Part shown: positions 10,744-10,836 of the stretch, piece by piece | Layout of the letters: the number at the start of each line of letters is the position of its first letter | Position numbering within the stretch: the stretch's first letter is position 1 | Source of the DNA: a virus | Taxonomy: Duplodnaviria; Heunggongvirae; Uroviricota; Caudoviricetes | Virus record (IMG/VR): IMGVR_UViG_3300018430_000002 | Direction: 5' to 3' (one strand) | Length of the DNA: 64,000 bases | The notes under the pieces: model-generated | Told to the model about the DNA's origin: nothing | The model's input: only the letters and a program-made list of their open reading frames with translations | The model's database searches: none | Translations under genes and position numbers: made by a program

Positions 10744-10836
10744 TGGCAGCCCCTCTGGGACTCGAACCCAGACTACCTTCTTCAGAGGAATATCACGGTT
10801 TTAGAGACCGGTGTTCTACCATTGAACTAAGAGGCT
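10744..10836 (-). tRNA. amber suppressor tRNA, anticodon CUA (tRNA-Trp-like body with a 23-nt variable-arm insertion, G73, CCA encoded)
   Basis: Acceptor AGCCTCT/AGGGGCT. D-arm TAGTTCAATGGTAGAAC and anticodon arm CCGGT-CTCTAAA-ACCGT nearly match E. coli tRNA-Trp (CCA changed to CTA). T-arm CTGGG-TTCGAGT-CCCAG. A dedicated class I promoter (10841-10890) fires directly into it. Confidence 0.7.

Follow-up and report, generated by a model that had tools for sequence, protein, structure and literature searches.

A phage amber suppressor tRNA whose variable arm carries a glutamine anticodon-like loop and may serve as a natural pseudo-anticodon

Gut phages in which TAG is recoded to glutamine (code 15) and that carry a tRNA-Sup(CUA) have been described by Borges et al. 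(10.1101/2021.08.26.457843) and Peters et al. (PMC9523058) and for phAss-1 (PMC10607447). How the suppressors of recoded phages become charged was stated to be an open question (Borges et al., 10.1101/2021.08.26.457843), and these three reports mention neither a long variable arm nor an anticodon-like second arm. In the literature on such arms, only an engineered analogue was found: Mukai 2020 (PMC7590224) sought to recruit the synthetase to an amber suppressor by exchanging its variable arm for the cognate sense tRNA's anticodon arm, and this pseudo-anticodon aided both the efficiency and the specificity of aminoacylation. The tRNAs in question are synthetic, possess a 9/3 allo-tRNA chassis and His identity, and depended on a HisRS to which an additional anticodon-binding domain had been fused; as a natural model, that work cites an mRNA operator and not a tRNA. 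Anticodon-mimicking hairpins that are bound by the matching synthetase occur in viral tRNA-like structures such as the BMV TLS-Tyr, in yeast mRNAs bound by synthetases and in the E. coli thrS operator (PMC9976931); they reside in mRNAs or viral genomes, where they regulate translation or replication. Two further points of reference are su7, a tRNA-Trp with its anticodon changed from CCA to CUA that is charged with Gln by GlnRS and is a 76-nt class I tRNA with a full tRNA-Trp body, and the class II tRNAs (Ser, Leu, Tyr and Sec) and allo-tRNAs (PMC5389517), which have a five-arm secondary structure and a long variable arm that is compatible with EF-Tu and the ribosome.

The window analysed here, a stretch of 64,000 nucleotides from a tailed phage (Caudoviricetes), contains a suppressor tRNA gene within the 32-tRNA array of an SPbeta-like phage. 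With ARAGORN, the check proposed by the initial annotation, a 93-nt CUA tRNA is obtained on the minus strand with the very boundaries annotated, 10744-10836, and Rfam RF00005 matches its full length (model positions 1-71) with 57.5 bits (E = 1.2e-10; gathering score 29). Position i of this tRNA corresponds to window coordinate 10837 - i. Its cloverleaf is of the 7/4/5/5 type with G73 as discriminator (10747) and an encoded CCA (10746-10744), and it has the traits of a bacterial-type elongator tRNA, namely, a 7-bp acceptor stem, a D arm, a 7-nt anticodon loop and a T arm with a UUCRA loop. The D arm (10813-10827, minus strand, GUUC-AAUGGUA-GAAC) is of class I type, with a 4-bp stem and a 7-nt loop, and differs in type from the D arms of the array's class II tRNAs (Ser, Leu and Tyr); the T arm (CUGGG-UUCGAGU-CCCAG) is located at 10755-10771 on the same strand. 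Arm 1, the decoding anticodon arm (10795-10811, minus strand), has the loop CUCUAAA, which fits Y-U-NNN-R-N and presents the anticodon CUA at 10804-10802, and its stem is topped by a C27.U43 mismatch that was kept in 29 of the 29 family members having the same stem. The variable region is 23 nt long, as initially annotated, and holds an additional hairpin, arm 2 (AUAUUC-CUCUGAA-GAAGGU, 10775-10793, minus strand), which was delimited by an anchored comparison of the family. Thermodynamic minimum-free-energy folding of the isolated tRNA sequence did not recover the cloverleaf (z = -0.34), which is common for tRNAs and does not conflict with the covariance-model call. No other tRNA of the window has a CUA anticodon, and neither of two additional Rfam tRNA matches found there decodes UAG; a competing UAG decoder, which the initial annotation had named, together with non-expression of this locus, as a finding that would count against it, was thus not detected in the window. 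ARAGORN identified two tRNA-Gln(UUG) genes but no tRNA-Gln(CUG) in the window, and megablast with the tRNA region as query returned no match among 50,697 deposited phage genomes.

A sigma-70/sigma-A-type promoter-like site (TTGACT-17 nt-TG-n-TATAAT, 11/12 consensus matches) found by a consensus scan at 10888-10860 on the strand of the tRNA, with 23 nt between its end and the tRNA 5' end, agrees with the promoter that had been annotated directly upstream. The independent timing of suppressor expression that had been proposed on this basis is only partly supported; the site is one of seven near-identical promoter-like sites in the tRNA array, and no feature sets it apart as separately timed. The closest relative, L010, has an identical site upstream of the orthologous tRNA, and most family members have none. 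The tRNA is directly followed by a weak terminator-like hairpin (10714-10744, minus strand, 3/12 pairs G-C) and a U-rich tract.

Like su7, the phage tRNA combines a Trp-like arm 1 containing U35 with G73, A1-U72 and the insertion of Gln, as deduced below, but it differs from su7 in its acceptor stem from pair 3-70 on, in a D stem unlike that of the resident tRNA-Trp and in its 23-nt second arm. The tRNA-Trp body that had been proposed for it is confined to arm 1, the A1-U72/G73 end and the D-loop, and does not extend to the D stem and the acceptor stem. The D arm had been regarded as near-identical to that of the resident tRNA-Trp, whereas the D stems differ at 4/4 pairs. Instead of a single anticodon C to T change, arm 1 (CCGGU-CUCUAAA-ACCGU) shows two differences from the resident arm (GCGGU-CUCCAAA-ACCGU), C27 for G27 and U35 for C35; it is closer to the anticodon arm of what we take to be the E. 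coli tRNA-Trp sequence. From the bacterial Trp body set (G73, A1-U72, G2-C71, G3-C70, G4-C69, G5-C68, A9) the suppressor has G73, A1-U72, G2-C71 and A9, but its pairs 3-70 and 4-69 are C-G and its pair 5-68 is U.G, and when the arms are left out its body is no nearer to the resident tRNA-Trp than to Asn, Asp and Gly tRNAs. The five-arm structure is shared with class II tRNAs and allo-tRNAs, but in class II tRNAs the loop of the variable arm is short and does not resemble an anticodon loop, and the D arm is unlike that of the suppressor. Acceptor/T stems of allo-tRNAs are 8/4 or 9/3 (PMC5389517) and those of the suppressor 7/5; assignment to allo-tRNA or tRNA-Sec (8/4, 9/3 or 8/5; PMC5389517) was rejected on account of the 7-bp acceptor and 5-bp T stems.

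In-frame TAG codons support the annotation as an amber suppressor. The late module (packaging, head and tail; 45435-64000, plus strand), in which TAG is a sense codon that this tRNA has to read, includes portal and virion-protein PHROGs, and its orthologues match SPbeta-type Pfam families. It contains 52 in-frame TAGs in 5,478 codons of 19 ORFs and another 32 in the tape measure gene (61340 onward), which gives at least 84 in late genes including terminase, portal and tape measure; all ORFs of the module terminate with TAA or TGA, and frame +1 between 62 and 64 kb has 21 TAG, 0 TAA and 0 TGA codons. Although the initial annotation considered the inserted amino acid unreadable from the sequence, it can be deduced from DNA-level alignments of 11 genes with 6 relatives. 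Among the 258 non-TAG partners of TAG, 139 were Gln codons (98 CAA and 41 CAG), 7 were Ser codons of any kind, and neither TGG nor Tyr codons occurred. TAG is opposite CAA/CAG in relatives, rarely opposite Ser codons and never opposite TGG, and it therefore encodes glutamine in this phage. CAA is two mutations away from TAG. Glutamines in the TAG columns of a protein-level terminase alignment were disregarded in favor of the DNA-level reading because code-15 gene callers write Q for TAG, an artefact that was directly demonstrated in the lysin family. The region at 30-45 kb, which has no long ORF under any stop reassignment, was considered as a second anomaly and dismissed: its 3-base periodicity is kept, and it is an ordinary run of small minus-strand genes that is likewise seen in relatives. 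A CUA suppressor in a large phage that uses TAG for Gln mainly in structural and lysis genes, with no phage synthetase found nearby, is the situation known from code-15 gut phages, and one relative was recovered from the gut of a giant tortoise, a type of sample that Borges et al. also surveyed.

Arm 2 consists of a 7-nt loop (10787-10781) closed by three Watson-Crick pairs (C-G, U-A and U-A), below which follow an A.G mismatch and then U.G and A-U. The loop is C-U-[CUG]-A-A, with CUG at 10785-10783, corresponds to the form N-U-NNN-R-N and appears as a copy of a tRNA-Gln anticodon loop. The variable regions of the family were compared as fixed-length segments anchored on the loop, a procedure that replaced MAFFT alignment, which misplaced gaps there. 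The covariation score of arm 2 is 0.441, compared to 0.167 +/- 0.028 for shuffled sequences, none of which reached 0.441 in 500 trials, and slid registers scored at most 0.19. Both closing pairs are paired in 41/41 sequences with four pair types each, and a compensatory U-A to C-G change separates the window tRNA from that of its closest relative. A shifted register with a GAA triloop, which is often preferred when arm 2 is folded alone, was rejected, as its covariation was no better than shuffled. Furthermore, the loop was conserved among members whose acceptor, D and anticodon stems are widely divergent. This pattern shows arm 2 to be a genuine helix maintained by selection; in one subgroup of the family, it has only two Watson-Crick pairs. 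The 23-nt insertion of the initial annotation has thus retained its length but is not an arbitrary insertion, as it corresponds to a conserved, covarying arm with a Gln anticodon loop.

Scans for long-armed CUA and UCA tRNAs were conducted ignoring the arm sequence. The long-armed CUA tRNAs were found to have YUYUGR in 20 of 26 cases, to which two close variants can be added (20-22/26 with a CUG/UUG loop; chance is approximately 3% per tRNA), and UCCAA, corresponding to the Trp CCA loop, occurred in 25 of 26 long-armed UCA tRNAs, which read UGA (chance is approximately 2%). Fisher's exact test gave p = 1.4e-13 for a by-eye tally of 21/0 versus 0/25, the exact recount being 22/0 versus 0/25, which could not but make the association stronger, and these counts cover homologous sequences and are therefore not independent events. 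As to cross-combinations, there is one CUA tRNA with a Trp-type arm and no UCA tRNA with a Gln-type arm. When arm 1 was removed in silico, ARAGORN called a tRNA-Gln(CUG), or a tRNA-Trp(CCA) for members of the Trp type. Long-armed suppressors with a class II body have no anticodon mimic in the arm, and synthetases of class II bodies ignore the anticodon. A scan for ochre (UUA) equivalents revealed none with a mimic. Taken at the level of sequence, loop type follows the encoded amino acid across three suppressor classes.

The one cross-combination, CUA with a Trp-type arm, was found in the L078/L608 lineage, in which TAG appears to stand for Trp. L078 by itself has too little coding sequence for a codon cross-test, for which L608, the same phage, was used. 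TAG was found twice opposite TGG and never opposite CAA/CAG, TGG depletion is specific to the TAG-bearing genes, and one copy of an internal repeat carries TAG where the other has W. In homologues, a conserved lysin column contains 79 W, 17 F, 16 Y and 6 Q, and the Q residues are TAG codons in L610 and L611, the close relatives whose DNA was inspected. The co-occurrence of this CUA tRNA with a TAG that aligns with Trp makes the arm a better predictor of the amino acid than the anticodon; in this lineage, it is the amino acid, and not the anticodon, with which the loop type of arm 2 changes.

These data are best accounted for by a functional, Gln-inserting amber suppressor in which arm 2 acts as a natural pseudo-anticodon for charging, a reading that we consider somewhat better than evenly supported. 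The suppressor would permit the translation of TAG-containing late genes in a host with the standard code. Arm 1 would pair with UAG on the ribosome, and arm 2 would present to the charging enzyme the anticodon identity nucleotides that were lost by the G36 to A36 change. Gln identity needs U34/U35/G36/A37 and Trp identity C34/C35/A36, and anticodon mutations cause up to a 10^4-fold loss of kcat for GlnRS (PMC9976931). Arm 2 would thus restore G36 for Gln and C34 for Trp, and UGA suppressors would use the same design with a Trp CCA loop, so that amino acid identity would be uncoupled from the codon read. Charging may be by GlnRS, or by the non-discriminating GluRS/GatCAB route where the host has no GlnRS. 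We infer that arm 2 is bound by the cognate synthetase and contributes to aminoacylation, a contribution that has its one experimental parallel in the engineered arm (PMC7590224); as to the mode, it might swap into the position of the anticodon arm during charging or serve as a second docking site. Compared with the Mukai tRNAs, the phage long-armed tRNAs are natural, have 7/5 stems and Gln or Trp identity, and are apparently served by unmodified host enzymes; in contrast to the thrS, yeast and BMV hairpins, the phage mimic is part of a tRNA that itself decodes, beside a functional anticodon that differs from it.

Several observations speak against a pseudo-anticodon. In GlnRS-tRNA complexes, the acceptor end and the anticodon are held at a fixed distance, and the variable arm does not naturally reach the anticodon site; this geometry is the first of them. 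The tip of the variable arm is far from the CCA end, and for the engineered design to work, an anticodon-binding domain had to be added to the synthetase (Mukai 2020, PMC7590224). Amber suppressors without a mimic are charged by E. coli GlnRS, as shown by su7 and by the tRNA(CUA) of other phages, 28 of 29 of which inserted Gln in an E. coli extract (PMC12636597), and 75-nt CUA suppressors without arm 2 are encoded by some of the same phages. The helix of arm 2 is moreover short, given its three Watson-Crick pairs before the mismatch and the two pairs in one subgroup. Non-discriminating GluRS mainly recognises a modified U34 (PMC9976931), yet C occupies the loop position equivalent to 34 in 53 of 68 arms, which would be unfavorable if the host were a member of the Bacillota without GlnRS. 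A scan of bacterial genomes found the tRNA in 3 of the at least 120 loci listed, one of them in a Bacillota MAG, and was otherwise dominated by chance matches, so that a Bacillota host is weakly indicated.

Alternatively, arm 2 might be an evolutionary leftover without a role in charging that arose, for example, when a sense tRNA-Gln or tRNA-Trp gene had its anticodon arm duplicated in tandem or received an inserted one; as in classical amber suppressors, identity would then be provided wholly by G73, a weak 1-72 pair, G2-C71, G10 and U35. G73, A1-U72, G2-C71 and G10 are all present in the window tRNA, the two arms and 4-nt linkers of UCA members resemble tandem copies (14/21 positions identical by eye in L243), and the charging of mimic-less suppressors by E. 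coli GlnRS as well as the presence of arm-less CUA suppressors alongside the long form fit this origin. A neutral relic should decay, whereas the loop is kept while its stem covaries with at least four pair types and the other stems diverge, and the switch of loop type with the amino acid rather than the anticodon in the L078 lineage also argues against a relic; we thus consider it fairly unlikely.

A 7-nt loop that is conserved while its stem covaries points to sequence-specific recognition without specifying the partner, which might be an enzyme modifying the anticodon loop, a phage protein gating the suppressor or a host anticodon nuclease for which arm 2 would be a decoy. The idea is in line with the frequent association of phage tRNA arrays with defence that targets tRNAs. 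No candidate binding protein was found in the window, however, and the match between loop type and decoded amino acid in three independent classes is predicted only by a synthetase identity element, making a non-synthetase partner unlikely.

It is very unlikely that arm 2 is the true anticodon arm of a sense tRNA-Gln(CUG) in which arm 1 is an extra hairpin between the D and anticodon arms, so that the tRNA either would not be a suppressor or would read both CAG and UAG by showing either arm. The tRNA-Gln(CUG) call obtained after deletion of arm 1 and the presence of two tRNA-Gln(UUG) but no tRNA-Gln(CUG) in the window are in line with such an arrangement. Against it, one nucleotide separates the D stem from arm 1, which is exactly the canonical spacing; the loop of arm 1 always corresponds to the stop anticodon recoded in the genome concerned; and the window has no other UAG decoder. 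Furthermore, the ribosome tolerates the long variable arms of natural class II tRNAs, and insertions at the 26/27 junction are without a precedent known to us.

Natural tRNA-Pyl has a 3-nt variable loop, a 6-bp anticodon stem and a small D loop and goes together with PylRS and pyl genes, and the 'tRNA-Pyl' label that ARAGORN gives to the suppressor is its default for CUA; the 23-nt variable region, the 5-bp mismatched anticodon stem and the normal D loop do not fit this identity, and none of the ten larger ORFs scanned had a synthetase-like Pfam match, or any Pfam match at all. A Ser-charged class II-type tRNA, to which the extended variable arm together with G73 used by SerRS (PMC7609411; PMC5389517) might point, is as improbable as pyrrolysine, and both very much so, considering the 7 Ser versus 139 Gln codons among 258 partners, the class I-type D arm unlike that of the Ser tRNAs in the array, and the internal mismatch of arm 2, a V-stem bulge being known to block SerRS (PMC7590224).

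Natural suppressor tRNAs with a second sense-anticodon-like arm thus represent a recurring design that has apparently not been described. The chances appear evenly balanced that these phage tRNAs are, in general, 'two-headed', with decoding on one arm and identity on a pseudo-anticodon arm, and that a swap of the latter switches the code. Genetic code expansion is persistently limited by the fact that anticodon identity elements are lost. If arm 2 functions as a pseudo-anticodon, the phage tRNAs would be a natural answer to this limit on engineered suppressors, as the second arm would set the meaning of the stop codon, and would provide ready natural scaffolds for a field in which the same trick was tried by design (PMC7590224). 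They would also be a natural case in which tRNA identity is uncoupled from decoding. The amino acid of a reassigned stop codon would be predictable from arm 2, a rule that correctly flagged the rare lineage in which TAG corresponds to Trp, and the design would explain how a large group of recoded phages get their suppressors charged by synthetases that read the anticodon.

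ARAGORN predicted 32 tRNA genes in the window, all minus-strand and confined to 8.5-16.3 kb, among them a 93-nt tRNA with the anticodon CUA at exactly 10744-10836 (-). This tRNA matches the Rfam tRNA covariance model over its full length (57.5 bits, E = 1.2e-10), and its coordinates, anticodon, arm length and discriminator agree with the initial annotation. Its cloverleaf comprises an acceptor stem AGCCUCU/AGGGGCU with a U5.G68 pair, a D arm GUUC-AAUGGUA-GAAC, the decoding anticodon arm (arm 1; 10795-10811, -) CCGGU-CUCUAAA-ACCGU with a C27.U43 mismatch, a variable region of 23 nt (arm 2), a T arm CUGGG-UUCGAGU-CCCAG, and the discriminator G73 followed by an encoded CCA. 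The name tRNA-Pyl is merely the default label of ARAGORN for any CUA anticodon. No other CUA tRNA was found in the window; as the whole genome measures about 170 kb and the window 64 kb, the rest may encode a second UAG decoder or a synthetase of the phage. Two further Rfam matches were missed by ARAGORN. The first, at 8728-8789 (-), is a tRNA-like fragment lacking an acceptor stem (52 bits, model positions 6-65 only), with an anticodon arm UCAGA-CUCUGAC-UCUGA containing the Gln CUG loop, followed by a T arm and a terminator-resembling U run; an intact tRNA-Gln(CUG) is absent from the window. The second, at 15286-15357 (-), scores weakly (36.9 bits); its anticodon loop is that of Glu (CUC) and its T arm is aberrant. 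Directly next to it, at 15361-15437, stands an intact tRNA-Glu(CUC), of which it is probably a decaying copy.

The proposal that the suppressor is built on a tRNA-Trp body was borne out for part of the molecule. Its D-loop is identical to that of the resident tRNA-Trp and its anticodon arm differs from the resident one at two positions, but none of the four D-stem pairs is shared. The acceptor stem leaves the Trp identity set from 3-70 onward, and once both arms are masked, the tRNAs for Asn, Asp or Gly resemble the body at least as closely as tRNA-Trp does. A likeness to the tRNA-Trp of E. coli and B. subtilis is a lead and not a result. The C27.U43 mismatch tops the decoding stem in every member with a CCGGU...ACCGU stem, namely, that of the window and 28 relatives, leaving only four pairs in arm 1; in other subfamilies the position is occupied by G.U or G-C. 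Six IMG/VR contigs of 83-138 kb (L007, L030, L043, L049, L062, and L063) carry two CUA suppressors each, 3 nt apart: one of 91 nt with a Gln-type second arm, and one of 75 nt and class I with a UGGGG acceptor start.

A promoter of its own had also been claimed for the suppressor. A sequence match to such a site, TTGACT-17 nt-TG-n-TATAAT, is present at 10888-10860 (-), and a weak terminator-like hairpin is located at 10744-10714 (-). The array region contains 28 promoter-like sites, compared to 16.3 +/- 3.5 in shuffled sequence. Seven of the sites in the array (10860-16735, -), including that of the suppressor, are near-consensus sigma-70-type sites on the same strand, with TTGAAA, TTGACT or TTGATT, 17 nt, and a TATAAT preceded by TG. 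These features are consistent with a short transcription unit of its own, read by the main RNA polymerase holoenzyme of the host, but nothing sets its timing apart from that of the other tRNAs, and the separate timing proposed for it found no support. The orthologue in L010, the closest relative, is preceded by an identical promoter and L070 also has one, whereas most other family members have an upstream terminator hairpin directly before the suppressor tRNA and no promoter. The general model of Borges et al. fits this arrangement, with the tRNA array surrounded by genes of early type and a concentration of TAG in the late module on the opposite strand.

Portal and virion-protein PHROGs match plus-strand genes past 45 kb, which identifies a tailed phage. 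More than 7,000 database relatives of its terminase exist, with contigs of 160-177 kb carrying the closest ones and a giant tortoise gut sample the source of one; no close match at the DNA level was found among deposited phage genomes. Orthologues on the contigs of relatives belong to Pfam families named for the Bacillus phage SPbeta proteins YonG, YonD, YonB, YomV, YomU, and YomW, which, together with one Bacillota MAG match, is only suggestive as to the host. Between 30000 and 45400 no ORF exceeds about 220 aa in any of the frames, whether read with the standard code or with any one stop codon reassigned, and a 3-base periodicity is clear; as in relatives, this is an ordinary dense run of small minus-strand genes (100-190 aa). 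The segments 1932-3443, 5561-6133 and 6401-7063 (all -), at a distance of a few kb from the array, hold a protein of 503 aa that matches PHROG 850 ("RNA-binding protein"; Pfam DUF2828 and DUF7788) and, near it, PhoH-like and ClpP-like genes. With TAG as sense, the PhoH ORF reaches further upstream through one TAG.

The late region is broken up under the standard code, and long ORFs appear once TAG is read as sense. In-frame TAG codons number 9 in the terminase, 7 in the portal gene and 32 in the tape measure gene (61340-64000, +), whose frame lacks TAA and TGA. Across 19 late ORFs, every one of which ends in TAA or TGA, 52 TAG were counted in 5,478 codons. The homologues' protein sequences have Q at 8 of the 9 TAG columns of the terminase, which was not relied on because code-15 gene callers write Q for TAG. 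The meaning of TAG was read from a comparison of DNA codons in eleven genes and six relatives, where its partners included CAA (98), CAG (41), TAG (31) and all Ser codons together (7), with TGG and Tyr codons at 0. Since CAA is two mutations away from TAG, this pairing reflects shared meaning and not mutational proximity. The inserted amino acid, initially held to be unreadable from the sequence, can thus be read from the codons of relatives, which indicate that glutamine is the meaning of TAG in this phage. TAG use is very uneven among late genes, ranging from 0 in the capsid gene and two other, probably abundant, structural genes (within 52850-54625 and 57751-58827, +) to 32 in the tape measure gene. 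A few minus-strand ORFs contain TAG or end in it; the 4 of the 47 of at least 100 aa that end in TAG (22561-24483, 4294-4908, 7591-8169, and 45008-45349) would be read through or extended with the suppressor active, for example from 640 to 688 aa.

Arm 2 proved to be a second, anticodon-like arm. A scan of IMG/VR with the anticodon arm alone as the query returned 75 loci with 51 distinct CUA tRNAs, 35 of them long (86-95 nt), of which 29 fall into the family of the window's tRNA. Anchored on the loop, arm 2 follows a common plan: 2-3 Watson-Crick pairs close a 7-nt loop CUCUGAA or CUUUGAA, followed outward by a purine-purine mismatch and 2-3 more pairs. The closing pairs covary, being UUC/GAA in the window and UCC/GGA, UGC/GCA, CAC/GUG, CUC/GAG, GCC/GGC, GCG/CGC, CCA/UGG or CACGG/CCGUG in relatives, and a compensatory U-A to C-G change separates the window from L010. 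In a gap-free alignment of 41 distinct arms, the two closing pairs are paired in 41/41 with four pair types each, and the covariation score is 0.441, compared to 0.167 +/- 0.028 in shuffled alignments (0 of 500 shuffles reach 0.441) and at most 0.19 in slid registers. A shifted register favoured by the thermodynamic fold showed no covariation. The loop conforms to pyrimidine-U-NNN-purine-N; the NNN triplet is CUG in 53 distinct tRNAs and UUG in 15, these being the two glutamine anticodons.

As the first scans had required the loop motif, they were repeated blind to the arm, selecting on the anticodon loop, the T-loop and a spacing implying a long arm, and nothing else. Among 26 distinct long CUA tRNAs, the arm contained YUYUGR in 20 (chance expectation about 3% per tRNA) and close variants (CCUUGAAGG, UUCUGCA) in 2; the remaining 4 have ordinary class II bodies with long D loops. 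Of 26 distinct long UCA tRNAs, 25 carried UCCAA, the Trp anticodon in its loop context, on a 4-5 bp stem (chance expectation about 2%), with an arm covariation of 0.877, compared to 0.209 when shuffled. At the UCA loci TGG leads the partners of in-frame TGA (8, versus at most 3 for any other codon), modest evidence that TGA would mean Trp there, in agreement with published assignments. No UCA tRNA with a Gln-type arm was found, and the rare long-armed ochre (UUA) suppressors proved to be class II tRNAs of the plain kind, with no mimic.

Exactly one CUA tRNA, that of locus L078, has a Trp-type arm, and its coding was read from 20 kb of the same phage (L608, ENA ERZ27256871 k141_1878130) and a syntenic relative, L612. 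The L608 lysin, a Hydrolase_2 protein, has TAG at a column that is W in 79, F in 17, Y in 16, Q in 6 and H in 2 of 120 homologues; the Q residues belong to the nearest relatives, and their codon was TAG where the DNA was examined (L610 and L611). The non-TAG partners of TAG are TGG (2), TTG, TAT and ATT, never CAA or CAG. TGG is scarce in TAG-bearing genes (0 TGG and 3 TAG in the lysin, 1 TGG and 13 TAG in a 613-aa DUF285 protein) compared to 16 TGG in a TAG-free gene of 625 aa. By our tally, TAG plus TGG make up about 2.2% of codons in TAG-bearing genes, versus 1.9% TGG in TAG-free genes; Gln codons are not depleted. The two copies of an internal repeat in L612 read FVGTLDE-W-NNLTAAQKAKF and FVGTQAE-TAG-NALTTAEKAEY, respectively. 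On the basis of a few genes, TAG appears to stand for Trp in the L608 lineage, which agrees with the prediction from the arm and goes against the usual assumption for CUA. Public gene calls render these TAG as Q. In L073 and L078 the long-armed CUA tRNA is directly preceded by a tRNA-Trp(CCA) gene, and near-identical acceptor and T arms in the L078 pair suggest that this suppressor was derived from the phage's own tRNA-Trp.

The arm triplet thus matches the amino acid in three classes, namely, Gln in the window, Trp in L078 and Trp for UCA. Because the compared tRNAs are homologous, their counts give too high a figure for independent events. The case rests most firmly on qualitative arguments, namely, that the loops stay conserved while the stems covary in tRNA bodies that differ widely, that each loop type goes exclusively with one anticodon, and that the single exception, L078, is informative. 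The suppressor tRNA as such is of a known kind. No natural tRNA with an anticodon-mimicking variable arm was found described in the literature on phage suppressor tRNAs, variable arms, anticodon mimics and pseudo-anticodons, covered mostly outside subscription journals; novelty appears to lie in the two-arm architecture and in how it correlates with the amino acid encoded, unless these have been described elsewhere. The nearest items are anticodon mimics in mRNAs and viral tRNA-like structures and the pseudo-anticodon arm of Mukai, which is engineered whereas that of the window is natural, and for which the thrS mRNA operator was cited as the natural model (PMC7590224).

Bacterial Gln identity comprises G73, U1-A72, G2-C71, G3-C70, and G10 as well as U34, U35, G36, A37, and U38, and Trp identity G73, A1-U72, G2-C71 to G5-C68, and A9 as well as C34, C35, and A36; anticodon mutations lower the kcat of GlnRS by up to ~10^4 (PMC9976931). 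The CUA anticodon lacks G36 and the UCA anticodon lacks C34, and arm 2 displays exactly the intact cognate loop. If arm 2 is deleted in silico, what is left is a class I tRNA(CUA), and deletion of arm 1 causes ARAGORN to call tRNA-Gln(CUG), or tRNA-Trp(CCA) for Trp-type members, so that the molecule amounts to a complete cognate tRNA plus a stop-reading arm. Most likely, arm 1 would decode UAG on the ribosome and arm 2 would give the charging enzyme the anticodon identity, which best explains these sequences, with the charging step inferred. During charging, the two tandem arms might swap positions beneath the D stem; alternatively, arm 2 might be an additional docking site. The geometry poses a genuine problem for charging through arm 2: a long distance separates the tip of a variable arm from the acceptor end, and the engineered pseudo-anticodon needed a synthetase with an added anticodon-binding domain (PMC7590224). 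In engineered tRNAs, a V-stem bulge keeps SerRS away (PMC7590224); by analogy, the conserved internal mismatch of arm 2 may repel SerRS, which is offered only as a suggestion. E. coli GlnRS already attaches Gln to ordinary amber suppressors, and of 29 phage tRNA(CUA), 28 inserted Gln when assayed in E. coli extract (PMC12636597). Arm 2 may therefore raise efficiency or specificity without being strictly required, and may chiefly matter in hosts with stricter enzymes or in those without GlnRS.
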